Positions 5,073-24,210 of a DNA stretch of 64,000 bases are shown here, in pieces. Position numbers and translations under genes: made by a program. The stretch is from assembly GCA_965218795.1 (NCBI GenBank), contig OZ244653.1, forward strand, positions 192,001 through 256,000. Reading direction: 5' to 3'. Numbering within the stretch: the stretch's first letter is position 1; each line of letters opens with the position of its first letter. The notes under the pieces are model-generated. The model was given only the letters and a program-made list of their open reading frames with translations. It was not told the origin of the DNA and did not search any database. This DNA is from a bacterium (GTDB lineage Bacteria; UBA8248; JACPRG01; G963555815).

Positions 5073-5498
5073 ATGAGCTTCGGACTCAATCGCGCTGAAG
5101 TGATCGGACGCCTGGGATCCGACGTGACCGTCAACCACCTCGCCTCCGGCGGACGCGTGGCCAACCTGTCCATCGCCACCGACGAGGGCTACATCGACAA
5201 GCAGACCGGAGACCGGGTCGACAAGACCGAGTGGCACCGGGTGGTGACCTTCCAGCCCGGGCTGGTGGACATGTTCGAGAAGCACGCGACGAAGGGCCGG
5301 CTGGTCTATGTGGCGGGCAAGCTGCAGACCCGTCGCTGGAAGAAGGACGACGAGGACTCCGACCGGTTCTCGACGGAGATCCTGCTGGTTCCGGGCGGGC
5401 GCGTGCAGTTCCTCGACAAGCCCAACGGCAACGGCGCGCCGGTCGCGGGGGCGGGGACGCCGTCCGCCGAAGCGCCCATGGACGACATCCCGTTCTGA
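5073..5498 (+). CDS. ssb: Single-stranded DNA-binding protein
   Basis: LNRAEVIGRLG, ANLSIAT, TEWHRVV, KGRLVYVAGKLQTRRW, C-terminal DDIPF; AGGAGA RBS. Confidence 0.95.
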   Translation: MSFGLNRAEVIGRLGSDVTVNHLASGGRVANLSIATDEGYIDKQTGDRVDKTEWHRVVTFQPGLVDMFEKHATKGRLVYVAGKLQTRRWKKDDEDSDRFSTEILLVPGGRVQFLDKPNGNGAPVAGAGTPSAEAPMDDIPF

Positions 5499-5692
5499 GC
5501 GCGCATTCCGTTTCCTCTCTCCACCCGGGCCGGCGCTTCGCGCGTCGGCCCATCTTTTTGCTGCCCGTTCCGAGTCCGTACCCGTTCGGGCATCGCGTCG
5601 GCGCTACGCGCGACGCTTCGCCCTCCGGCGCCGGCCGGAGGCAAAGGCCGGCCGGTATCGGGCGTTCCCCGTCCATCCAGAGGAGGCCCGTC

Positions 5693-6569
5693 ATGCCGCC
5701 CCCATCGTCCCGTTCCGCATCTCCCGCCGCCGACATCGCCGCCGCGCTCGGCGCGCGCGCCGAGGCCGTCTGCCGGCGTTACCTGCCCCAGGGCAAAAAG
5801 CAGGGCCGGTACTGGGTCGCCGGCGATCTCGAAGGCGCTCGCTCTTCGTCCGCCTGCACGGTCCCGGGGTCCCCGGGAAGTGGACCGACGCGGCCACCGG
5901 AGAGCACGGGGACCTGCTCGATCTCGTCCGGCATCGCTCGGGCGCGCCGAGGCCCGCGCCTTCCTCGCCCTGCCGGCTCCGCCGGCGTCGGGCGAGAGCT
6001 ACGACGCAACAAAAGCGGCCCGCCGCCTCTGGCGGCGTTGCCGCGCCATCGGCGGCACCCATGCCGAGGCCTATCTCCGCGCCCGCGGACTCGCGCGCTG
6101 CCGGTTCCCGGCATTGCGCTTCCATCCCGAGCTTCGCTATCGCGAAGGCTCTTCCCTGCGCCGTTTTCCGGCGCTGGTCGCCGCCGTGACCGGCGACGAC
6201 GGCGCCATCCACGGCGTGCAGCGCACCTGGCTCGATCCGCGCTTGCCCGCCAAGGCGGACGTCGCGGCCCCGCGCAAGGCGCTCGGCCGCATCCACGGAC
6301 GCGCCGTGCGCTTCGGCAGGCCCGCCGCCTTCGCTCCGCCTGGCGGCGTCGCGCGCCTCGTCATCGCCCGGGACAACGATTCCGAGGGCGAACGGGCCGC
6401 CCAACGCCTCGCCCGGCGCTGCGCGCGGGCGGGCGTCGCCGCCCACGTCATCGTCTCCGAATACGGCGACTTCAACGACGACCTGGTCACTCTCGGACCC
6501 CGGGCTCTGGCCCTTCGGCTCACCGCCCTGTTCCGTACGCCGCATCGGTCCGGACGGATCGCGCGATGA
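5693..6569 (+). pseudogene. Plasmid/ICE-type primase (Toprim, DUF7146-like), frameshifted with internal deletions
   Basis: Pieces in three frames: AEAVCRRYLPQG..GRYWVAGD; GKWTDAATGEHGDLLDLV; AEAYLRARGL..ALRFHP..PALVAAVT..GVQRTWL..RKALG; LVIARDND..GDFNDDL. Confidence 0.8.
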
Positions 6570-6570
6570 A

Positions 6571-6759
6571 GTGATCGCGCGCTATCGCGCCGATCTCTGG
6601 CGCCGCATTCGCGCCGCCGAGGTCGGGCTCGACGAACTCGCCGCCCTTCACGGCAAGCCGCTGGCCTGCTGGTGCGCGCCGCTGCCCTGCCATGGGCAGG
6701 TCCTCGCCCGCGCCGCGGCATGGGCGGCCTCCGTTCTGGCGGAACGGAGGAGAGAGTGA
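6571..6759 (+). pseudogene. DUF4326-like C-terminal fragment
   Basis: LAALHGKPLACWCAPLPCHGQVL motif; N-terminal half missing. Confidence 0.7.
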
Positions 6760-10594: not shown

Positions 10595-13126
10595 GTGGAC
10601 TCCATTTTCGATTGGCCAGGCAAGTCCGACAACAATGACAACGAGCGCCCGGCAGTCCTGCACATGATGGATGTGGCGGCGTGCGCTGAACGACTAATCG
10701 ACGGGCACACGGCGTTCGGCGGACTCTCCGTGGCTCAGCGCCGCGCGCTGGTGATCCTGGTTGCACTCCACGATGTCGGCAAGTTGTCCGAGAGTTTCCG
10801 GGCCCTTATCCGCGCCGGCGAGAGGGGAGCACCGCCGCATTGGCAGCTCTCCGACTTTCTGTTGTGTGGGACCTTGGACGAGGTGCTGAGCAGACTCGGT
10901 GCCGATGAATGGGTGCGCACACAATTATACGCTGCCGTGGCCGGGCATCACGGACAGCCGCCGACGCGGGCAAGTGGTAATCGAACCGAGAGACGCAAGC
11001 GGCAGCATGCCGTCGGTAGCGGCAAAGAGGCGGCGCGAGAGTGGGCACTCCGACTGATGGAGGTGTTCCCGGACGCGTCGCTGGAAGGCATTACGTTCGA
11101 CGACGCCAAGGCGCTCAGCTGGGCGTTGAGCGGCCTCACTGTTGCCGCGGACTGGGTGGGCTCGAATACCGACTGGTTCCCGGTTGAGCCGGGCCTTCAC
11201 GATATTGAGGCAGCGCTTGCAGAATCGCGACGCCGCGCCGGTCGAGCGATTGAGTCAGCGGGTCTTGATCCGCCCTGTCCTGCACCGGTCGATGGCGACG
11301 CGCTCATCGGAGTGACCGAATTGCGACCGATGCAGCAGGCGGCATTAACGATTGGGCTGGAGGAAGGACCTCAACTGGCTGTTCTCGAAGACGCGACCGG
11401 CACCGGAAAGACCGAGGCAGCTCTCATCCTGGCCCATCGCATGATAGCGGCGGGCAAGGCGCGAGGGTTGTTTTTTGCGCTCCCCACCATGGCTACATCC
11501 AATGCTATGTTCGAGCGCATGAAAAAGATCGCGCCGGAATTGTTCAAGACTTGGCCGTCGATGGTGCTGACGCACAGCCGGGCGAAGCTAAGCGAAACTG
11601 TTCGGGGTTTGCGCGGAGCAAAGGCCGATGAAACCCCGGAGGCCGATGGCGCCGCTTGGCTTACGGACAACCGCCGACGATCGTTGCTGGCTACAGTGGG
11701 GGTTGGGACGGTCGATCAGGCGTTACTCGGCATCCTCCCCACCCGCTTCTCGACGCTCAGGCTGTTCGGCTTGGCGGACAAGGTGCTAATCGTCGACGAG
11801 GCCCACAGTTACGACCCCTATATGCAAGAGCAGTTGGAGACGTTGTTGAGAATGCAGGCCCAACTCGGCGGTTCGGCCATCCTGATGACTGCGACCCTGC
11901 CGTTGGAGATGCGCCGGGCGTACGTCAAAGCGTTCCGGGAGGGGATCGCGGCGAGAGCGGCAGACCTCTCGGCTATGTACTATCCCGGACTGCATCTTGT
12001 CGGTCGCGGGTTGTGCACCCAAGTCGTTGAGCCCCTGGCCGAGAGTGTTCGTACTGTCTCGGTCGTTCGGCTTCCGAGAGCGGATGATGCAATGGACCTG
12101 CTGAAGGAGGCGGCGGGAAGGGATGCGGCGTGCGTATGGGTGCGGAACGCCGTCGATGACGCCATCGAGACGGCCGAGGCATTGAGGCGGCGGGGAGTGA
12201 ATGTGGACCTGCTCCATGCCCGTTTCGCCATGGTCGACCGACTACGCCATGAACAGGCGCTGCTGGGCCGGTTTGGGAAGAATGGGTTAGGACGCGAGGG
12301 CCGGGTTCTGGTGGCGACGCAGGTGGTTGAGGCGTCGCTCGACCTCGACTTCGACGTTATGGTCTCAGATCTCGCGCCGATCGGCTCGCTGATCCAGAGA
12401 GCAGGCAGGCTTTGGCGACATATGGATGTGCGTCGCGAGGCCGTTCGTCCGTTCCCCGGCCCTATCTTGCACGTAATTTCGCCGGACCCGGAGAAGGTGG
12501 AAGGAGACGGCTGGCTTCACGACGTGCTCGATCGGGGGGCGTGGGTGTATCGACTCGACCACCAGTGGCGGACAGCGAAGGCGATGTTCGAGGCGGGCGA
12601 GATCGTCGCGCCGGACGGACTTCGCGTCTTGATTGAGACTGTACACGGCGAGGGGGAGTTACAGGTCCCCAAGTTACTCGAGGAGGCGCAGCAAAGGGCC
12701 GATGGCCAGGCAATGGCCGAGGCGGGATTGGCGCAGGTCAACGTGGTGGAAGGAGCGGCCGGTTATCTCACCGGAACCCGTGGCTCGGTCGGCAATGACG
12801 CGCTGTTTCCGACGCGCCTCGGGGAGCCGCAAGTGACGATGGTGCTGGCGCGACGCGACGGCGACCGCTTGCTTCCATGGGCTGAAGATGATGATCCGGC
12901 AGTGGCTTGGGCCTTGTCGGAGGTATCTGCCGCCCGTAAGCGATTCGAGCGCCTATTGCCGGATCAGGAAACGCCGGAAATCCGTGATGTCAAGGAAAAT
13001 TGGCCCGAATGGCGGCGTGAGGCCTACCATGTCTGCCCAGTCGACAAGGCTGGAGCGATTGGCGAAAGGATGCTATATGATTCCGAGCGAGGCCTCCATC
13101 TGTGCGCATTCCGTGACCCGTCTTGA
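10595..13126 (+). CDS. cas3: CRISPR-associated helicase/nuclease Cas3 (HD + SF2)
   Basis: WPGKS, HMMDVA, LHDVGK, GHHG, ADWVGS, ATGTGKTE, DEAH, LMTATL, LLHARF, ATQVVEASLDLDFD, QRAGRLWRH. Confidence 0.97.
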   Translation: MDSIFDWPGKSDNNDNERPAVLHMMDVAACAERLIDGHTAFGGLSVAQRRALVILVALHDVGKLSESFRALIRAGERGAPPHWQLSDFLLCGTLDEVLSRLGADEWVRTQLYAAVAGHHGQPPTRASGNRTERRKRQHAVGSGKEAAREWALRLMEVFPDASLEGITFDDAKALSWALSGLTVAADWVGSNTDWFPVEPGLHDIEAALAESRRRAGRAIESAGLDPPCPAPVDGDALIGVTELRPMQQAALTIGLEEGPQLAVLEDATGTGKTEAALILAHRMIAAGKARGLFFALPTMATSNAMFERMKKIAPELFKTWPSMVLTHSRAKLSETVRGLRGAKADETPEADGAAWLTDNRRRSLLATVGVGTVDQALLGILPTRFSTLRLFGLADKVLIVDEAHSYDPYMQEQLETLLRMQAQLGGSAILMTATLPLEMRRAYVKAFREGIAARAADLSAMYYPGLHLVGRGLCTQVVEPLAESVRTVSVVRLPRADDAMDLLKEAAGRDAACVWVRNAVDDAIETAEALRRRGVNVDLLHARFAMVDRLRHEQALLGRFGKNGLGREGRVLVATQVVEASLDLDFDVMVSDLAPIGSLIQRAGRLWRHMDVRREAVRPFPGPILHVISPDPEKVEGDGWLHDVLDRGAWVYRLDHQWRTAKAMFEAGEIVAPDGLRVLIETVHGEGELQVPKLLEEAQQRADGQAMAEAGLAQVNVVEGAAGYLTGTRGSVGNDALFPTRLGEPQVTMVLARRDGDRLLPWAEDDDPAVAWALSEVSAARKRFERLLPDQETPEIRDVKENWPEWRREAYHVCPVDKAGAIGERMLYDSERGLHLCAFRDPS

Positions 13127-13210
13127 CGAAGCTGTTCCGCTTTTTCGTGACTTGGGACGTTGAGAATGAACCTTTAGTACTCTTCTGGCTGTCGTGCCCG
13201 GAGCCCCCGG

Positions 13211-14719
13211 ATGTCGTTGAACCTCATTACGGATTCATGGATTCCAGCCCTGCGGGGAGGGGACCGCGTCACCATCCGCCCTGATCAGATTGCCGAGTCC
13301 GGCGTCACCACTCTTGTCTGGCAGCGGGCGGATTTCAACCTCGCCTGTCTTGAACTCCTGATCGGGTTGATCTCGATGGCCGATCCGCCGAAGGACGAGG
13401 CCGACTGGTTCTCACGCCTCAACCAACCCGACGCCAAGCGACTCCGCGAGGCGCTGGCGCCGTTTGCGCCCTGCTTTGCACTCGCGGGGGACGGACCGCG
13501 CTTTCTTCAGGATCTGGAAGCCTTCGAGCAGGCGGCCAAACCTTCTGACATCAAGTTAGTGGACATGCTGTTCATCGATTCCGCCGGCGACTCGACCGCG
13601 TTAAAGAACGCCGATCTGATGGTCAGGCGTCACCGATTTGACACTCTCTCGCCCGCAGAGGCCGCAATGGCGCTCTACACGCTTCAGGCGTTCGCTCCAT
13701 CCGGCGGAGCGGGCAACCGGACTTCGATGCGCGGCGGCGGGCCGATGACGACGCTTGTCCAGCCCCTGGATGAGGAAGGCGGGCGCTTCACGTTGTGGCG
13801 GCTGGTCTTCGCTAACGTCCTTCCCAGAGCGCCACTCGCGGTGGAGGATGTGAAAGCCGCGCTGCCCTGGCTACGTCCGACGCGGACTTCGGAGAAAGAC
13901 CAGATCGTGACTCAGGAAGACGCGCACCCGCTGGAGGCGTTCTTCGGCATGCCCCGGCGGTTGAGGTTCGTATTCAGCAAGGAGGACCGGGTCGTGGGCG
14001 TGGTCCAAAGGCCCTACGGGACGAACTACGCGGCGTGGGAGCACCCCCTGACGCCATACTATCGCCAGAAGGAAGACGCCGCTGAATGGCTGCCGGCCCA
14101 CCCCAAGGCCGGACGTCTCAGCTACCGAAACTGGTTGGGGGTTACAATGGAACCCGGCCAGGAAGGAAAAGGGACTCGACGCACCGCTAGAACCGTCCGC
14201 GAGTGCCGCAACCGTTCCCGAACGCCGGACTTCGAGCTCATGGTCGGCGGTTGGACGATGGACAACATGAAACCCGTCAGTTTTTCGCTCGACAAGTACC
14301 CCGCTTTTCCGGGTCTGGGCCAGGACGGCGAGGACCGGGTTCGCCGATTCGTGGAGGCCGCGAACGCCGCTTCACGTGCCCTTCTCAAGCAGATCAAGGC
14401 CGCCTGTCGGCTTGCGGGTACGTCCTCCGATATGGTGGCCGATTCCTTCTTCGCCGAGACCGAGGAGGAATTCATGAGAACGGTTCGACGAATCATCGAT
14501 GGCACAGGGCCTGAAGTCGAGGAAGCATGGCATCGAACCCTCAAAGGTCGGACGCTTTGTATGTTTGACGAGCACGTCCTCGGCGGCCTCACCGACCGTA
14601 ACATCGCGGGGATCGAAAGTCGGATCATCGCCCGGCGCAACTTGCTCGCTACGCTGGTGAGGCAGGTTCGCAAGGAGATGGACCTGCCCCTACCCGGCAA
14701 GAAGGAGAAACAGGCATGA
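13211..14719 (+). CDS. casA: Type I-E Cascade large subunit Cas8e/Cse1
   Basis: NLITDSWIP, PRFLQD, LYTLQAFAPSGGAGNRTSMRGGGPMTTLV, FFGMPRRLR, WEHPLTPY. Confidence 0.95.
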   Translation: MSLNLITDSWIPALRGGDRVTIRPDQIAESGVTTLVWQRADFNLACLELLIGLISMADPPKDEADWFSRLNQPDAKRLREALAPFAPCFALAGDGPRFLQDLEAFEQAAKPSDIKLVDMLFIDSAGDSTALKNADLMVRRHRFDTLSPAEAAMALYTLQAFAPSGGAGNRTSMRGGGPMTTLVQPLDEEGGRFTLWRLVFANVLPRAPLAVEDVKAALPWLRPTRTSEKDQIVTQEDAHPLEAFFGMPRRLRFVFSKEDRVVGVVQRPYGTNYAAWEHPLTPYYRQKEDAAEWLPAHPKAGRLSYRNWLGVTMEPGQEGKGTRRTARTVRECRNRSRTPDFELMVGGWTMDNMKPVSFSLDKYPAFPGLGQDGEDRVRRFVEAANAASRALLKQIKAACRLAGTSSDMVADSFFAETEEEFMRTVRRIIDGTGPEVEEAWHRTLKGRTLCMFDEHVLGGLTDRNIAGIESRIIARRNLLATLVRQVRKEMDLPLPGKKEKQA

Positions 14720-15228
14720 CTGTCGGTGGTGTGGTCATCGAATGGTGGCAGTTTTCGCTGCGTCAAGATGACGGTGGAGCGCGGGCCGCACGCGCCCGGC
14801 TGAGGCGTTGTGATTCGCCTGCTGAGGCGCTTGCGGTTTCCGAGACGCACGACCTCAACAGGCGGCTGAAGATGATCGGGAAAACCCCGACGCCCGATCA
14901 GCTGGCACTCCTCACCACGACTTTTGCCGGGCTCAGAGGCATTGACGGCGATAAGCTCGCGGCCCTGTTCGGGAAAAAGGAAAACAGGGATAGTCCGCCT
15001 ACGCTTAGCGAGCTGCGGTTCCAATCGTTGATTCGCATTCGCTCGCGCCGCGATTTGATGGCGCCGCTTCGTCGTTCCCTCGCGGTCCTTGGAGCCAACC
15101 CCGCCTGCGACGGACGAGCGTTGGCCGAAGATCTCTACTTCTGGAACGACGGGGTCCGCAATCGGTGGTGTTTTCAATACTTCGGCGCCGAGTTCGCCGT
15201 AACCAACCAAGAGGAGAGTGTTCAATAA
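14716..15228 (+). CDS. casB: Type I-E Cascade small subunit Cas11/Cse2
   Basis: ARAARARLRR, LSELRFQSL, RWCFQYF; position in operon. Confidence 0.92.
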   Translation: MTVGGVVIEWWQFSLRQDDGGARAARARLRRCDSPAEALAVSETHDLNRRLKMIGKTPTPDQLALLTTTFAGLRGIDGDKLAALFGKKENRDSPPTLSELRFQSLIRIRSRRDLMAPLRRSLAVLGANPACDGRALAEDLYFWNDGVRNRWCFQYFGAEFAVTNQEESVQ

Positions 15229-16304
15229 TGCGCTTCGTGCAACTTCACTTCCTGACCGTCTATCCGCCCTCAAACCCCAACCGAGACGACATGGGCCGCC
15301 CGAAGACGGCGGTCTACGGGGGCGTTCATCGGCTTCGGCTGTCGTCGCAGTCATTGAAACGAGCGGCCCGCCTGTCGCCTGCCATGTCCGACGCCTTGAA
15401 GGGCAACATGGGCGAGCGCACCCAACGTCTTGGCGACGAGGTGATGAAGCATCTGCGCGAACGGGGCGCGGACGACGGGAAAGCTCGCGAAATCGCCAAA
15501 CAGGTGGCCGAGGTCTTCGGCAAGTTCGACACCGAGGCGGAAAAGAAAAACCCGGACCATATCCGTATCAGACAGTTGGCGTTCATTTCGCCCGATGAAC
15601 GTCAGGCAGCGATGGAGATGGCGGAGCGGGCCCTGGCCGGCGAATCCCTCGACAAGGAAACCGGGAACTGTAGCAAGGAAATCCTGCGTGCCGCCGACGG
15701 AGCGGTTGACCTCGCCATGTTCGGGCGCATGCTGGCCGATGCGCCGGATTTCAACCGAGAGGCTGCGGTGCAGGTTTCGCACGCCATCACGACGCACCAA
15801 GCTGAGGTGGAAGACGACTATTACACCGCCGCCGATGACCTGAAGAAACCGGCCGAGGACATGGGTGCGGGATTCGTCGGTGAGGCTGGGTTCGGGTCCG
15901 GCGTATATTACCTCTATGTCTGCGTTGATACCGTCCAGCTCGTGGAAAACCTCGCAGGTGATCGTGTGCTGGCACGAAAAGCACTGGAGGCGGTGACCGA
16001 AGCATTCGCCACCTCCAGTCCGTCCGGCAAGCGTAACAGCTACAGCCACCACACCCGCGCATCGTACATTCGTGCCGAGGCCGGAGACCAGCAACCGCGA
16101 AGTCTGGCGGCGGCGTTCTTAAACCCTGTCAAGGCGGATGACCTTCTCGGCGAATCCATCAACCGGCTCAAGAAGACGGTGGACGCTATTGACAAGGCGT
16201 ACGGCGCCTCGACCCACGAATCGGCGGAGATGGATCTGGCCAGCGGTTCCGGCGCCTTGGCCGAGATCAAGGCCTTTGTAGGCAGGCAGGTGGGCGATGC
16301 GTGA
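15228..16304 (+). CDS. cas7e: Type I-E Cas7/Cse4
   Basis: FVQLHFLTVYPPSNPNRDDMGRPKTAVYGG..RLRLSSQSLKRA, DLAMFGRMLA, AAVQVSHAITTH, DYYTAADD. Confidence 0.97.
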   Translation: MRFVQLHFLTVYPPSNPNRDDMGRPKTAVYGGVHRLRLSSQSLKRAARLSPAMSDALKGNMGERTQRLGDEVMKHLRERGADDGKAREIAKQVAEVFGKFDTEAEKKNPDHIRIRQLAFISPDERQAAMEMAERALAGESLDKETGNCSKEILRAADGAVDLAMFGRMLADAPDFNREAAVQVSHAITTHQAEVEDDYYTAADDLKKPAEDMGAGFVGEAGFGSGVYYLYVCVDTVQLVENLAGDRVLARKALEAVTEAFATSSPSGKRNSYSHHTRASYIRAEAGDQQPRSLAAAFLNPVKADDLLGESINRLKKTVDAIDKAYGASTHESAEMDLASGSGALAEIKAFVGRQVGDA

Positions 16305-17031
16305 GCATTTGGTGTTCCTCCTATCCGGGCCCATGGCTTCGTTCGGCGGCTATGCCGGGCATGAACGTCGAGGGAGCGGGGTGGTCCCCATGCGTTCGGC
16401 GGTACTGGGGCTGTTGGGCGCGGCGCTCGGCATCAACCGGGCGGACGCCGAAGGTCAGGCGGCCCTTCGCGCGTATTCGGTGGCCGTGCAGCCGTTTCAA
16501 GAATCGGCACCGTTTAGGGATTACCACACGGTGCAAACGGTACCGACGGCTGGGGCCAAACGACCGCCAACCCGAAAACATGCACTAGCGCGCGTCGGAC
16601 GCGAGATCAATACGGTCATCACCATTCGCGATTACCGATGCGACGTTCTGATCGGGGTTGCACTTTGGGGCAATGGCCAGTGGACACTTGGCGATCTTTC
16701 CCTTCGCCTACGACGACCCGTGTTTCCCCTCTATCTCGGTCGTAAGTCATGCCCGTTGGCGAGCCCTCTCAACCCTGATGTGGTAATGGCGGCGGGGCCG
16801 GTCGAGGCGCTGGCTCGCATTGAAATCCCGGAGTGGCTGCGCCCCGAAAGGTGGTCCGAACAAGGGCGCGGGCGACACCCCGTCTACTCCGATCCGGTGG
16901 ACGGCCTTGACCCCCCGCCGTCGATAGAACAGGTCCCGGGCGAGCCGCTCGATCGTCAAGTCTGGACCTTCGGCGAGCGGAGCGTCTGGCACATGGGAGA
17001 CCACCGAAGCGGACCGAGGGGCGAGGCATGA
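16297..17031 (+). CDS. cas5e: Type I-E Cas5
   Basis: LSGPMASFG..R..PMRSAVLGLLGAALG, DYHTVQ, LYLGRKSCP. Confidence 0.95.
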   Translation: MREHLVFLLSGPMASFGGYAGHERRGSGVVPMRSAVLGLLGAALGINRADAEGQAALRAYSVAVQPFQESAPFRDYHTVQTVPTAGAKRPPTRKHALARVGREINTVITIRDYRCDVLIGVALWGNGQWTLGDLSLRLRRPVFPLYLGRKSCPLASPLNPDVVMAAGPVEALARIEIPEWLRPERWSEQGRGRHPVYSDPVDGLDPPPSIEQVPGEPLDRQVWTFGERSVWHMGDHRSGPRGEA

Positions 17032-17753
17032 CGCATTACCTGACCCGCGCTGTACTCAATCGAAAAGCGCCGGAACACGCGCTCAGGTCTTTGTTCGACC
17101 CACTGGACGCGGACGCGGCGTTCGATGCCCATCACCGGTTGATGTGGACGTTGTTCCCGGATCCCGATGCGAAGCGCGACTTCCTGTGGCGCGCTGACGA
17201 CAATGGCAAGTTCTTGATCCTCTCTGCCCGTGAACCGCAGGGCTCGCGCCTGTTCGAACCGCTTGAGTCCAAGCCCTTCGAACCGATGATGGCGGCGGGA
17301 GACCGGCTCGTGTTCATCTTGCGAGCCAACGCCACCAAGGACCGACGGTCCGGGCTGCAAGACGACGTCCCCCCAGGCACCAAGCGCAGGCCACGCAAGG
17401 ATCGCCGTGTCGATATAGTGATGCATGCGATGCGGGAACAGGGAATCAAAAGCGGGACCATCGGCGCCGATTCCCGCGTCTCCCGGCGCATGGATGTGGC
17501 CAGGGAGGCAGCGCAGGCGTGGCTCGCCGCTCAGGGTGAGCGCCGGGGTTTTTCGGTCGACGCGCTGGCGATCGAGGACTACCGAGTCTGCAAATTAAAG
17601 CGCCGGGGTGGCAAGGAGGCAACCTTCGGCGTGATTGATCTCAGGGGCCTGTTGTCCGTTCGAGACCCGAAGGCCTTCACCAGTGCGTTATTCACGGGTT
17701 TTGGCCGCTCCAAGGCCTACGGTTGCGGCCTGATGTTAGTGCGCCGCACCTGA
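17028..17753 (+). CDS. cas6e: Type I-E Cas6/Cse3 crRNA endonuclease
   Basis: AHHRLMWTLF, FLWR, FILRANAT, C-terminal GFGRSKAYGCGLM glycine loop. Confidence 0.96.
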   Translation: MTHYLTRAVLNRKAPEHALRSLFDPLDADAAFDAHHRLMWTLFPDPDAKRDFLWRADDNGKFLILSAREPQGSRLFEPLESKPFEPMMAAGDRLVFILRANATKDRRSGLQDDVPPGTKRRPRKDRRVDIVMHAMREQGIKSGTIGADSRVSRRMDVAREAAQAWLAAQGERRGFSVDALAIEDYRVCKLKRRGGKEATFGVIDLRGLLSVRDPKAFTSALFTGFGRSKAYGCGLMLVRRT

Positions 17754-17768
17754 ATCGTCGTCATATCG

Positions 17769-20115
<2,347 letters not shown>

Positions 20116-20159
20116 TCGCCTTTGAGCCCCGGGAATCTAGGGAGGAAACGACCGAGTAA

Positions 20160-20271
20160 GGAATGAGGAACCGCTAAAAGCCATGACCGAAGCTTTGAAC
20201 AAAGCTCGGAAAAAATCGGTAACCCAGGGCGATGCCGAATATGGCTTTTGAATCAATAGGTTCCAGGAAGT
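20160..20271 (+). promoter_or_regulatory. CRISPR leader
   Basis: A/T-richer non-coding tract (AAAAAATCGGTAA...TTTTGAATCAATAGGTT) between the native cas2 stop and repeat 1. Confidence 0.75.
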
Positions 20272-21886
20272 ATGTTCCCCGCCCACGCGGGGATGAACCG
20301 TAATCCTCCTCAATGTGCAAGGCTATGACCTCATGTTCCCCGCCCACGCGGGGATGAACCGAAGGGTTCGGCGACGCGCCATTGAGTACCCGAATGTTCC
20401 CCGCCCACGCGGGGATGAACCGCCAGGGTAGAAACTCCGTGGCCCGCTCCGGGTATGTTCCCCGCCCACGCGGGGATGAACCGGTGCTCCGCAGACCCGA
20501 ATCGTACGTGGCGAGATGTTCCCCGCCCACGCGGGGATGAACCGGGCATGAGCAAAACCCATTTCGCCAGAGAAATATGTTCCCCGCCCACGCGGGGATG
20601 AACCGATACGGATGGGCGATTACTTGGCGGACCCATGATGTTCCCCGCCCACGCGGGGATGAACCGACGGCATGCTGAAGGAGTAAGGCGAATGACAGAT
20701 GTTCCCCGCCCACGCGGGGATGAACCGTGGCAGGTCATTGTATCCGATGAGGTTATCGAATGTTCCCCGCCCACGCGGGGATGAACCGATTGAAGGAGGT
20801 AGAAAATGCAGGGAAACGGGATGTTCCCCGCCCACGCGGGGATGAACCGACTGGGAAAATCGGACGGGTCAACGTTATTCGATGTTCCCCGCCCACGCGG
20901 GGATGAACCGACGGGAACCATCCGCCATAGACGCTGAGGATTATGTTCCCCGCCCACGCGGGGATGAACCGTTATTCAGATACGCTTTGTTTATTGCAAT
21001 CTTATGTTCCCCGCCCACGCGGGGATGAACCGTCTGGTGCCCTTTCATCCGGACCGGTGAGAAGATGTTCCCCGCCCACGCGGGGATGAACCGAATATCA
21101 ATTAGATTTAATGAATCAAGTCGTAATGTTCCCCGCCCACGCGGGGATGAACCGAAGAATATCCGTACTCACAAAGGAGGTGAACCATGTTCCCCGCCCA
21201 CGCGGGGATGAACCGACCGGCAAGATTGGAAGGGTCAACGTGATCAGATGTTCCCCGCCCACGCGGGGATGAACCGGGTTCAAGAGAAGTAGACAAAGTG
21301 CCTATGCGATGTTCCCCGCCCACGCGGGGATGAACCGTATTCGGGTCATCCAAGTTCAAGGCGGCTGCAATGTTCCCCGCCCACGCGGGGATGAACCGTC
21401 GCTTCCTGAGGCTTCCCTGAGCTTCATTAAATGTTCCCCGCCCACGCGGGGATGAACCGATTTACACCTGGTATCGTGATGCAGTTCTCCGATGTTCCCC
21501 GCCCACGCGGGGATGAACCGAAAGAAACTGCTCAATAAGAATATCCTCACTCATGTTCCCCGCCCACGCGGGGATGAACCGGAGGTCGCCCACATCCAGG
21601 CCGGCGCTGGCCGATGTTCCCCGCCCACGCGGGGATGAACCGTCCGTCCAGCGCCTTGTCGCTCCCGCACCTCGATGTTCCCCGCCCACGCGGGGATGAA
21701 CCGGAGGTGATGATGTGGCTTATCACCCGCCTCTGATGTTCCCCGCCCACGCGGGGATGAACCGACAGGAACCGGCTTGACATTCGCCCGTTTAAAATGT
21801 TCCCCGCCCACGCGGGGATGAACCGTGGCAGAAGCGATCTTTGAAGTGATCGCCCATATGTTCCCCGCCCACGTGGGGATGAACCG
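20272..21886 (+). CRISPR. Type I-E CRISPR array: 27 repeats (29 bp), 26 spacers (32 bp)
   Basis: ATGTTCCCCGCCCACGCGGGGATGAACCG at a strict 61-bp period; the last repeat (21858-21886) has one C>T change. Confidence 0.99.
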
Positions 21887-22194
21887 ACGAGGGCCGCGAG
21901 TGAGACGGACTTGGGGGCCGAGAAGGTGAGGTCCTGCCTGGGCCGGAGATGGAAGTCGCCCTCCTTGCCCCTGCGTCCGAGCCTGCGGCCGGAGCCGTCG
22001 GGCACCTTGCCCTCCAGGACCGCCTGGAAGAGGTGGGGATCGACCGGGCCTTCGAGTCCGAGGTCCGCAGCACCCCTGCCGGCCCAGACGCTCGCCTGCC
22101 GGTGGGCTAGGTCGTCCCTGGCGTAGTAGCCGTCCTTTTCGTAATAGAAGACGCCCTGGGAGGCCGAGGCCACGGCGCCGATCGAGACGACCAC
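21887..22194 (-). pseudogene. MOB-F relaxase N-terminal fragment, cut at the last CRISPR repeat
   Basis: VVSIGAV..FYYEKDGYYARDD..WAGRGA..LGLEG..RPRQDLTFSAPKSVSLAALVG, then reads into the repeat. Confidence 0.88.
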
Positions 22195-22195
22195 G

Positions 22196-24210
22196 TCAGA
22201 TCCGCCTCAAACGGCCCTGATGGGGTTTCCGTTGCGGCTCCGTGCTGTTCCCGCTCTTCCCCGGAAGCGAAGGGGCCGGATCGGCCGTACCCGTCTCGTC
22301 CTTTTCGGATTGCCTGTGGGGCCGCCTCGCGGCTTCTCCATGGGGTGTCGCTGAGGCCTGCCCGGATTCCCTCGCCTCGACTTCTTCCCGCGTCCCCTGT
22401 CCGGAACTCCGGGGATGCCTGAGCTTGAGCTCCCCTTGCCGGTCTCCGGTTGCGTCCGCTCCTTCCGATGCCTCCTCCCTGGGCACGAACCGTTCCGCCG
22501 CCCTGGGCCTGTGGACGTAGTCCAGCCCAATCCGGGCCACGGGCCAGGGTCCGGGGAACTTCAGGTACCCCTGCAGGTTCTCAAGCCGCATGATCTCCGA
22601 CGGCAGGGCCAGGGAGCGCATCTCCCGGCGCTGGGTCAGCGACACCCCGTCACGCAGCACGCTCGCCCCGTAGCTCAACCCGTGGGAGTATTCCTCCACC
22701 TCGCCCCGACCCAGGCTCTCGGCCGACCACCGGGCCGTCTCCTGGTCGGGCGCGGCCAGGACCACCCGGGTCCCGCACAGCCCGGAGATCGTCTCCGCCC
22801 CGTTCTTTCCGTAGAGGTCGCGCAAGGCCGAGATCACCTGGATCCCGAGCACGAAGCACCCTCCGAACTGGCGGGACTCGGCCAGGCCGGGCTGGAGGCT
22901 CGGCACCTGGTGGAGGGTGGGCAGCTCGTCCAGGACCACCCAGACCCTTCTGGCGTCGTCCTGATGGAGGGAGAGAAGGGCGTTCACCGCGATCTCCAGC
23001 CAGGTGGAGATGAGCCCCCTCAGGCTCGCGTGCTGGTCCCCCCTCGATGTCAGGAACAGGAACCCGGTCCCGTCCTCTCGGCTTACCCACTCCCGGATGG
23101 AGAAGGGCTCGCCCGTATCGGGCAGGTATTCCAATGCTCCCAGGTGGGCGGTCAGCATGGCCCGGACCGACAGGGCGGTCTTGGGGTTTTCGGGGTCCAC
23201 GATGGACTGGGCCACCGTGCCCTCCATGGCTTCGGCCAGGGATGTCAGGTCGGTCTTGAGCAAATGGTCGACCAGGACCCGGTTCCGGGTCTCCCCCTGC
23301 TTCCAGAGCCCGCCCGCGCCGTTGGCGAACAGCTGCCTGGCCGCCGTGACCCAGAAGGGGTCCACCGTGTCCTTCTGCTGGGGGATGAGGGCGGCCGCCA
23401 TCATGTCGAAGTCCCGGGGGGCGTCCCGGCCTCGTAGAAGGGAGACCAGCAGGGGGCCCGGGTATCGAGGGGGTTCATCAGCACGTCCCGGGCCGGATCG
23501 AAGAAGGAGCGGGTATAGCTCCCCATCTTGTCGTAGAGGATGCAGCGCTCGCCCCGGGCGCGGATCCGGGCGACGAGGTCGGAGATCAGGACGGTCTTGC
23601 CCGAGCCTGTGGTGCCCGAAACGATGGTGTGCTGGGTCTCGGCTCTCTTGGGCCAGGGGATCCCGGCGATGCGGGGGGAGGATCTACGCGCCTTGGGAGA
23701 CAAAGCCTCCATAAGACGCACGGACAGGGGCCGGACGCGCCTTCTCAGGTCCCGTGCCGTGGCCATCTCCGCTCCCCGGACCCTTTTGGCCCGGTCCAGG
23801 CGCCTTCCCCGGACAGAGAACAGGACCGCGCACAGGGCCATGCCCCCCGTTCCGAGCCACAGGCCGAGCCAAGCCTTTGAGTAGATCGTATGGAGCAGGC
23901 GTCTTCGGATCCTTTCGATCCTGGGGTCATTGGCGATATCCACGATCCTCAGGAGTGTCGTTTTGCCTTCCCTCCACTCGTACTTCTGGAGGGAGTGGCG
24001 GGAATACCCCAGTGCGAGCTTGGCCTGGGCGAGGGTGCCCGTTCCCACCAGGCGCCATTCATGGGCGGTGGTGGTTCGGAAGAGAGCTACGGAAGGGACC
24101 AGGACGATTGTCAGCGCGATGCCCAAAAGTCCCCACCTGACCAGCTGGCCCCACATGTGGACGTCGTGGGCCAGGGTCTGGCCGCCCCGGAGCGTGGCGT
24201 TGCCGAACAT
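22196..24210 (-). pseudogene. traD: Type IV coupling protein (TraD/TrwB), frameshifted near 23416-23421
   Basis: Two TM segments and Walker A SGTTGSGKT in 23401-24210; VVLDELPTL, LAESRQFGGCFVLGIQ, SEIMRL in 22196-23404. Confidence 0.88.

Follow-up and report, generated by a model that had tools for sequence, protein, structure and literature searches.

Several described systems resemble the locus reported here. In a plasmid experiment with the type I-C CRISPR system of Legionella, two of 23 new spacers fell on one protospacer (PMC5071653), and discrepancies in the order of single spacers in Pseudomonas aeruginosa have been ascribed to independent acquisition (PMC4524480). For type I-E systems AAG is described as the canonical protospacer adjacent motif (PAM), together with priming and a strand bias (PMC10011333), and in E. 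coli I-E the seed comprises positions 1-5, 7 and 8 of the spacer and every sixth position is unpaired (Xue et al., PMC4678831). Spacers against Microviridae are likewise an established observation, and CRISPR-based host predictions are given for ~20% of one microvirus data set (Kirchberger et al. 2022, PMC9239249). Here we analyse a type I-E array of 26 spacers in a stretch of 64,000 nucleotides (nt) from a bacterial genome (contig OZ244653.1, positions 192,001 to 256,000 of the forward strand; the window, to which all positions below refer). The best overall explanation for two of its spacers, numbers 10 and 16, is with high probability that they were taken from the same capsid protospacer in two diverged members of one microvirus clade.

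As in the described cases of repeated acquisition, one PAM-flanked site was sampled more than once, and biased sampling and small targets likely favour such repeated capture. Unlike in those cases, both copies stand in one natural array, carry eight silent differences and point to two diverged phages. Repeated protospacer capture, silent differences between spacer and phage, priming and spacers against microviruses are all on record (PMC5071653, PMC4524480, PMC10011333, PMC9239249). We regard the locus as a well-resolved natural instance with no new mechanism behind it; the novelty lies in which clade was targeted and in an indirect link to a host. It provides a natural example of how an array copes with diverged relatives of one phage, in which a conserved motif together with a Lys codon (AAG) leads to recapture of the site after the older spacer has ceased to match. 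The two spacers are:

20850..20881, + strand: spacer 10, sense strand, microvirus capsid codons ~12-22 (TGKIGRVNVIR)
21216..21247, + strand: spacer 16, the capsid site of spacer 10 in a diverged relative (24/32 identical)

They stand in places 10 and 16 among the 26 spacers, differ at positions 3, 6, 9, 12, 16, 27, 30 and 31, and share the frame-1 peptide TGKIGRVNVI. A preliminary description of this DNA had given these sequences, coordinates, difference positions and the common peptide, all of which proved exact. Complete codons contain seven of the differences, six at third positions and one as a CGG/AGG exchange, and all of these are silent. The eighth, at position 31, belongs to the truncated 11th codon, where spacer 10 has CGN (Arg) and spacer 16 has AGN (Arg or Ser); the earlier claim of seven synonymous changes and an eighth compatible with Arg in both is thereby confirmed. 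The next-best pair in the array reaches 16/32 (650 comparisons, i.e. 325 pairs in two orientations), and the probability of at least 24/32 is 4e-9 per random pair. By exact count, eight random substitutions leave the peptide of frame 1 intact with P = 1.1e-5; summed over six frames the value is at most 6.8e-5, and the silent pattern is thus far from random. A reverse-strand reading (RITLTRPIFP / LITLTLPILP) would require three amino-acid changes and was dropped after the sense-strand gene had been found.

Duplicated spacers within one array are known (PMC4524480), and one of the two could in principle have arisen from the other in this way, followed by point mutations. This origin, which the preliminary description had also judged unlikely, is extremely improbable: eight changes would have accumulated in 32 nt while 26 of the 27 repeats of 29 nt stayed unchanged, all eight are silent in one frame (with the above P = 1.1e-5), and both forms fit natural codon variants found at the site in the phage clade described below. 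Since the repeats have not drifted, the divergence arose in the source genomes under protein selection and not in the array.

The gene under selection was found by its peptide. Searches of both spacers and of the whole array against the 'phages' and 'plasmids' collections gave only chance-level or repeat-driven matches. The back-translated peptide matched nothing but the spacers themselves in the bacterium's own genome and nothing in 60 relatives at <=2 mismatches, and back-translated KIGRVNVIR had 0 matches. By contrast to these nulls, a back-translated pattern of Lys followed by TGKIGRVN matched 14 sites on 13 IMG/VR contigs of 4.0-7.1 kb with a guanine-cytosine (GC) content of 46-53%. All 14 lie in frame at residues ~10-26 of an open reading frame (ORF) of 415-443 amino acids (aa), in the context ...RGGxTL-K-TGKIGRVN-[CV]-[ILV]-R-QQ..PGE. 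Six further back-translated patterns, with an information content similar to or above that of this one, had 0 or 1 match in the same collection, so that 14 matches at one gene position are not due to chance. A capsid profile search added six loci of the clade and brought the set to 19 contigs. Five of the six lack LKTGKIGR and were recruited via the unrelated motif [YV]NEWYKW, and their site reads KSGKIGR[VC]N; the sixth and most distant locus (L156, 44% identity) has KTGNVGRV after an AAG codon. In a search of 5.8 billion proteins, 347 capsid homologs were obtained at E <= 1e-10. The best 120 of these 347 are all located on contigs of <= ~7 kb and all carry PF02305; 107 of the 120 fit the site pattern, 106 of these 107 have Lys before the site, and seven of the 120 read KTGKIGRVNVLR, one residue off the spacers.

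The target is the F-type major capsid gene (PF02305, ~420 aa) of a Microviridae clade. Microviruses are small circular single-stranded DNA (ssDNA) phages with an F-type capsid, whose genomes of ~4-6.5 kb have their genes on one strand. In contig L138 the ORF that contains the site is Microviridae capsid protein F (PF02305, 60.7 bits, cut-off 25; phrog_514, 3.4e-21). The five main ORFs of L138 lie on one strand in the order 159-aa ORF, capsid, 170-aa ORF, 269-aa ORF and replication initiator, the last being of the rolling-circle type (PF23343, 28.9 bits, cut-off 27.8; phrog_713, 1.2e-23; both values for L138 only). The 159-aa ORF matches phrog_1386 'head morphogenesis' (2.5e-13) and, below the cut-off of 25, the Pfam family gpD (scaffold protein D; E = 0.0023, 18.3 bits). 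For the 170-aa ORF neither Pfam (E <= 10) nor PHROG (E <= 0.01) gave a match, and no family match was obtained for the 269-aa ORF. This order of D-like scaffold, capsid, two ORFs and initiator matches what we take to be the gene order of phiX174. Terminal repeats of 90-127 nt in 11 of the 19 contigs (4.0-7.1 kb) indicate circular genomes. Against named phages (phiX174-like F, Eel River basin pequenoviruses) the clade capsid aligns over 92-97% of its length with 20-23% identity. The homology to phiX174 F and to the Eel River basin pequenovirus capsid is thus full-length and includes a shared [IM]GR motif at the spacer site; in a joint alignment with both, Gly16 and Arg17 of the site are invariant, and the spacer site carries the motif that is best conserved in the N-terminal part of this protein. 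Differences from phiX174 are the low capsid identity, a D match that stays below the Pfam cut-off, and the G spike and H pilot proteins, for which no homolog was detected at sequence level. Phages termed phiX-like here are the Bullavirinae together with the pequenoviruses ('Suborder I' in PMC9239249). One IMG/VR contig (L141, 7074 bases) contains two slightly different copies of the capsid gene (501-1757 and 5400-6659, ~4.9 kb apart) and has the appearance of an assembly that passed around a circle more than once, through two variants. The preliminary description had proposed the peptide as a tag for an unknown virus family, and it did retrieve this capsid clade. A 10-residue spacer peptide can therefore identify a virus family where DNA searches fail.

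The peptide could also be shared by chance with a non-microviral element or a cellular gene from which the spacers were really taken. A relaxed form of the pattern, which together with AAG had 0 matches in viral_contigs, hit 37 loci in metagenome_contigs: 27 in the antisense frame of one ORF family, presumably an alpha/beta hydrolase, seven primase-like loci, which we take from their TOPRIM motifs to be archaeal DnaG-type primases, and three singletons. In addition, the peptide of spacer 6 is matched at 9/10 residues in a viral contig of 31 kb and 36% GC. We nevertheless consider such a source very improbable, as the 37 loci carry Asp where the spacers have Asn, lie on large cellular contigs and were judged unrelated; the alternative loci are also not matched by spacer 17 or spacer 20, whereas three to four spacers converge in frame on conserved motifs of one microvirus gene. 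The N-terminal domain of the archaeal DnaG-type primases (L016, L019, L020, L025, L035, L036 and others) does contain a motif, LQKTG[KR]IGRIDVIL, that resembles KTGKIGRVN.[IL]R of the capsid. We take this resemblance as convergence or chance.

Two further spacers bear on the same capsid gene:

21277..21308, + strand: spacer 17, again the capsid gene in sense orientation, at residues ~210-220 (frame 1: GSREVDKVPM)
21460..21491, + strand: spacer 20, probable capsid spacer, residues ~108-118 (IYTWYRDAVL)

Back-translated GSREVDKVPM had 0 matches as a pattern. Against the capsids, spacer 17 matches 9/10 residues and up to 25/32 nt in IMG/VR contigs and 10/10 residues in five of the 120 best homologs, a score that was reached by 0/1560 shuffled spacers. 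As spacer 17 had been outside the search patterns up to that point, it supports the same gene independently. An exact-peptide scan for spacer 20 gave 0 matches; its score of 38, just before the YNEWYKW motif, was reached by 1/1560 shuffles, and it matches 7/10 residues at the homologous position of P0112, so that spacer 20 is probably a fourth capsid spacer. For spacer 6, the match in the 31-kb viral contig covers 20/32 nt with CTT upstream, and its assignment between this contig and the LGDY motif of the capsid is ambiguous. Overall, at least three to four of the 26 spacers come from this one capsid gene. The microvirus total may be higher because only conserved motifs are detectable.

In the relatives, the codon directly before the site of spacers 10 and 16 is an in-frame Lys codon, AAG at 12 of 20 sites and AAA at the other eight. 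AAG would also be the PAM of this system. The four spacers assignable to the capsid (10, 16, 17 and, probably, 20) are all derived from the sense strand and all start at codon position 1. Of the sense-strand AAG triplets in the capsid genes, 42% are in-frame Lys codons; four spacers that all start in frame have P ~0.03, for which we offer no explanation. The capsid clade, the Lys codon and spacer 17 together support the claim, made from the two spacers alone, that spacers were acquired twice, independently of each other, at a single conserved PAM within a constrained gene of two related phages.

Several observations weigh against this explanation. The full back-translated TGKIGRVNVI had 0 matches in viral_contigs, genome_contigs and metagenome_contigs, and the exact peptide does not occur in any of the best 120 capsid homologs. 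It was a spacer-derived pattern that retrieved the first 13 contigs, so that their match at the site holds by construction. An exact or near-exact protospacer was not found in any genome: spacer 10 is matched at 25/32 at best and spacer 16 at 23/32. With the capsid profile, neither a homolog nor a prophage was found in the bacterium's own genome or in the other 50 genomes of the class, a set that included no positive-control genome and so says little, and among 546 spacers from I-E arrays of relatives no match to the clade rose above the reversed-sequence control. AAG is an assumed PAM of this system, and in the relatives it is missing upstream of the positions matched by spacers 17 and 20. 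Finally, the number of available sites has to be considered. Per contig, the median number of AAG is 70 for the sense strand and 176 for the two strands together, and uniform sampling gives a coincident pair with a probability of 2-4% for three spacers, 8-20% for six and 23-49% for ten. With only three capsid spacers, chance by itself thus explains the pair poorly, unless further spacers are microviral as well.

The best match of only 25/32 means that the true source phages remain unsampled. Identities at the sampled sites range from 20 to 25/32 with spacer 10 and from 19 to 23/32 with spacer 16, so none of the contigs is the source. The database check suggested in the preliminary description, which called for two related genomes with an AAG-like PAM, came out positive for relatives with AAG at the site and not for the source genomes themselves. 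The divergence of the two sources can still be estimated from the clade. Among 171 pairs of clade sites, the 16 pairs with 24/32 identity at the site have capsids that are 51-67% identical, whereas capsid pairs with >90% identity share 28-31/32. Spacers 10 and 16 therefore come from distant relatives and not from a phage and its recent escape mutant. The proposal that the pair records escape by synonymous divergence, in the sense of a recent arms race, is not supported by these values.

We propose that purifying selection on the capsid held the peptide and the Lys codon and that the silent sites diverged almost to saturation. With both peptide and Lys codon conserved, the same PAM-flanked site would have been offered by both phages. 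The CRISPR RNAs (crRNAs) would have the sequence of the sense strand and hence pair with its complement, which by the strand sense of phiX174 is present in the double-stranded replicative form only. By the E. coli rules, positions 6, 12 and 30 do not count, which leaves five effective mismatches between the two spacers (3, 9, 16, 27 and 31), one of them in the seed. That position 3 belongs to the seed, as the preliminary description had noted, agrees with the E. coli seed of positions 1-5, 7 and 8 (PMC4678831). Cross-protection between spacers 10 and 16 is thus unlikely, and under these rules the second phage would have required its own spacer.

The reason why the same site was taken twice we infer from the size of the target. 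With few AAG sites and at least three to four spacers from one gene, re-sampling of one site is not very improbable, and priming by spacer 16 may have helped. The E. coli type I-E system, in which primed adaptation is known, agrees with the present one in its set of cas genes and in the lengths of repeats (29 nt) and spacers (32 nt). An older spacer with a partial match, a newer exact spacer against a relative and the use of one strand, as in E. coli priming, are compatible with the array, given the order of acquisition that we deduce. A stronger form of this idea, which we regard as possible but doubtful, is that crRNA-16 bound the diverged protospacer too weakly for interference and recruited Cas3 and Cas1-Cas2, and that the priming site itself was re-captured as spacer 10. 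Spacer 16 indeed lies farther from the leader than spacer 10, yet five spacers (11-15) lie between them. Five effective mismatches including seed position 3 would block interference and permit priming in E. coli I-E (PMC4678831, PMC10011333), but this tolerance is borrowed from E. coli. All four capsid-assignable spacers are on the sense strand, as primed I-E acquisition predicts, although such agreement is weak and expected by chance in ~1 of 8 cases. Spacers 16 and 17 are adjacent, the distance between their sites within the gene is ~590 nt and Arg is encoded by AGR in both, whereas no neighbour of spacer 10 can be assigned to the phage. Descriptions of re-acquisition of the priming protospacer itself were not found in the literature consulted, and such re-acquisition is here something we infer. 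Somewhat less probable still is the combined claim that the array represents natural 'spacer updating' at a priming site and that a host would be indicated for the first time for a large hostless phiX-like microvirus clade with at least 347 capsid homologs in public data; hosts of the clade may already be given in the host tables of PMC9239249.

One spacer and its neighbours might instead have been imported by recombination from the array of another strain of the population that had been immunised by the other phage. Several array variants coexist in the runs X4-X6 (one study), and array recombination is documented for some species, although for most species studied it is described as a minor process (PMC4524480). 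There is no sign of a junction, as all internal repeats are identical, and two independent acquisitions at the same site would still be required, merely in two cells. We consider import improbable. Two acquisitions from diverged microviruses thus remain the preferred explanation, and they tie a phiX-like ssDNA phage clade that has been seen only in metagenomes to a bacterium outside the enterobacteria. This link is indirect but useful to microvirus ecologists. Unlike the predictions in PMC9239249, it rests on peptide-level matches of three to four spacers and not on near-identical DNA. The host is a member of a poorly sampled lineage: among the matches listed, its RpoB is <=61% identical to any of 80 named records (50-61%, from many phyla).

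The array belongs to a complete I-E locus with the following features:

10595..13126, + strand: cas3 (HD nuclease and helicase; Pfam Cas3_HD, DEAD, Cas3-like_C_2)
13211..14719, + strand: cse1/cas8e (Pfam CRISPR_Cse1, 280 bits)
14716..15228, + strand: cse2/cas11 (Pfam CRISPR_Cse2)
15165..16304, + strand: cas7 (I-E; Pfam Cas_CT1975, 335 bits)
16297..17031, + strand: cas5 (Pfam Cas_Cas5d)
17028..17753, + strand: cas6e (Pfam CRISPR_assoc)
17769..18707, + strand: cas1 (Pfam Cas_Cas1, PF01867)
18670..18969, + strand: cas2 of the I-E type (Pfam Cas_Cas2CT1978, PF09707, residues 7-92, the whole profile)
18943..20115, + strand: insertion sequence (IS) of 1173 bp (Pfam DDE_3 and helix-turn-helix), inserted at CTAG at the 3' end of cas2
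20116..20271, + strand: displaced cas2 tail (to ~20159) and array leader, read from the sequence
20272..21886, + strand: type I-E CRISPR array of 26 spacers (32 nt) between 27 repeats (29 nt)

The operon upstream of the array (10595-18969) is complete, every cas gene scores above its Pfam cut-off, and the interference genes, Cas1 and an I-E Cas2 beside the array and the 29-nt repeats with 32-nt spacers all correspond to type I-E. The array has a period of 61 nt and a palindromic repeat with the stem CCCCGC/GCGGGG. Of its 27 repeats, 26 are identical, and the last one, at the end opposite the cas genes, differs by a single C-to-T change. No other array in the genome (a single contig of 5.17 Mb with 60.5% GC) has this repeat. 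The region upstream of the array probably functions as leader, judged by its position. From this position and from the degenerate repeat at the far end, the leader side was taken as the cas2-proximal one; spacer 1 would then be the newest, and spacer 16 older than spacer 10.

The IS sits between the cas operon and the leader and splits the two. Its ends read CTAGTGT...ACACTAG, and we presume that it belongs to the IS630 family. The left end at 18943 lies inside the cas2 frame, where ~15 native terminal codons are replaced by 8-9 IS-derived codons. The genome contains 10 copies that are 99.9-100% identical, which indicates recent activity. Directly past the last repeat, the window carries a gene for a type IV secretion coupling protein (22196-23404, - strand; TrwB_AAD_bind, 330 bits). 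The match begins at profile position 93, the N-terminal part being absent or in another frame, and the neighbour of the array may be a conjugative element.

Of the sequencing runs X3-X6 that were compared with the array, X4-X6 contain exact repeat-spacer-repeat pieces of it, spacer 16 among them. The same runs (window 20116-21950) also contain many other spacers flanked by the same repeat, so that several array variants or related strains coexist in the samples. For the recovery of the phage or of the spacer order, X4-X6 yielded nothing usable.

Among the remaining spacers, two pairs show partial similarity. The 3' half of spacer 21 (21521-21552) equals the 5' half of spacer 15 (21155-21186) at 14/16 bases, and spacer 6 (20606-20637) matches the reverse complement of spacer 26 (21826-21857) at 13/14 bases. 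The overlap score of these pairs was reached by 3/40 shuffles, so that overlapping or homologous protospacers, i.e. repeated sampling of small targets, are no more than suggested by them. Spacer 22 (21582-21613) matches a DUF488 gene of the bacterium's own genome (C1:3205566-3205590) at 24/25 bases over positions 1-25 and diverges beyond, and probably derives from a DUF488 homolog on a mobile element. Spacers 7 (20667-20698), 9 (20789-20820) and 15 (21155-21186) contain a Shine-Dalgarno-like AAGGAG(G), in two of them with an ATG next, and appear to come from gene starts. Spacers 12, 14 and 21 are far more AT-rich than the host genome with its 60.5% GC.

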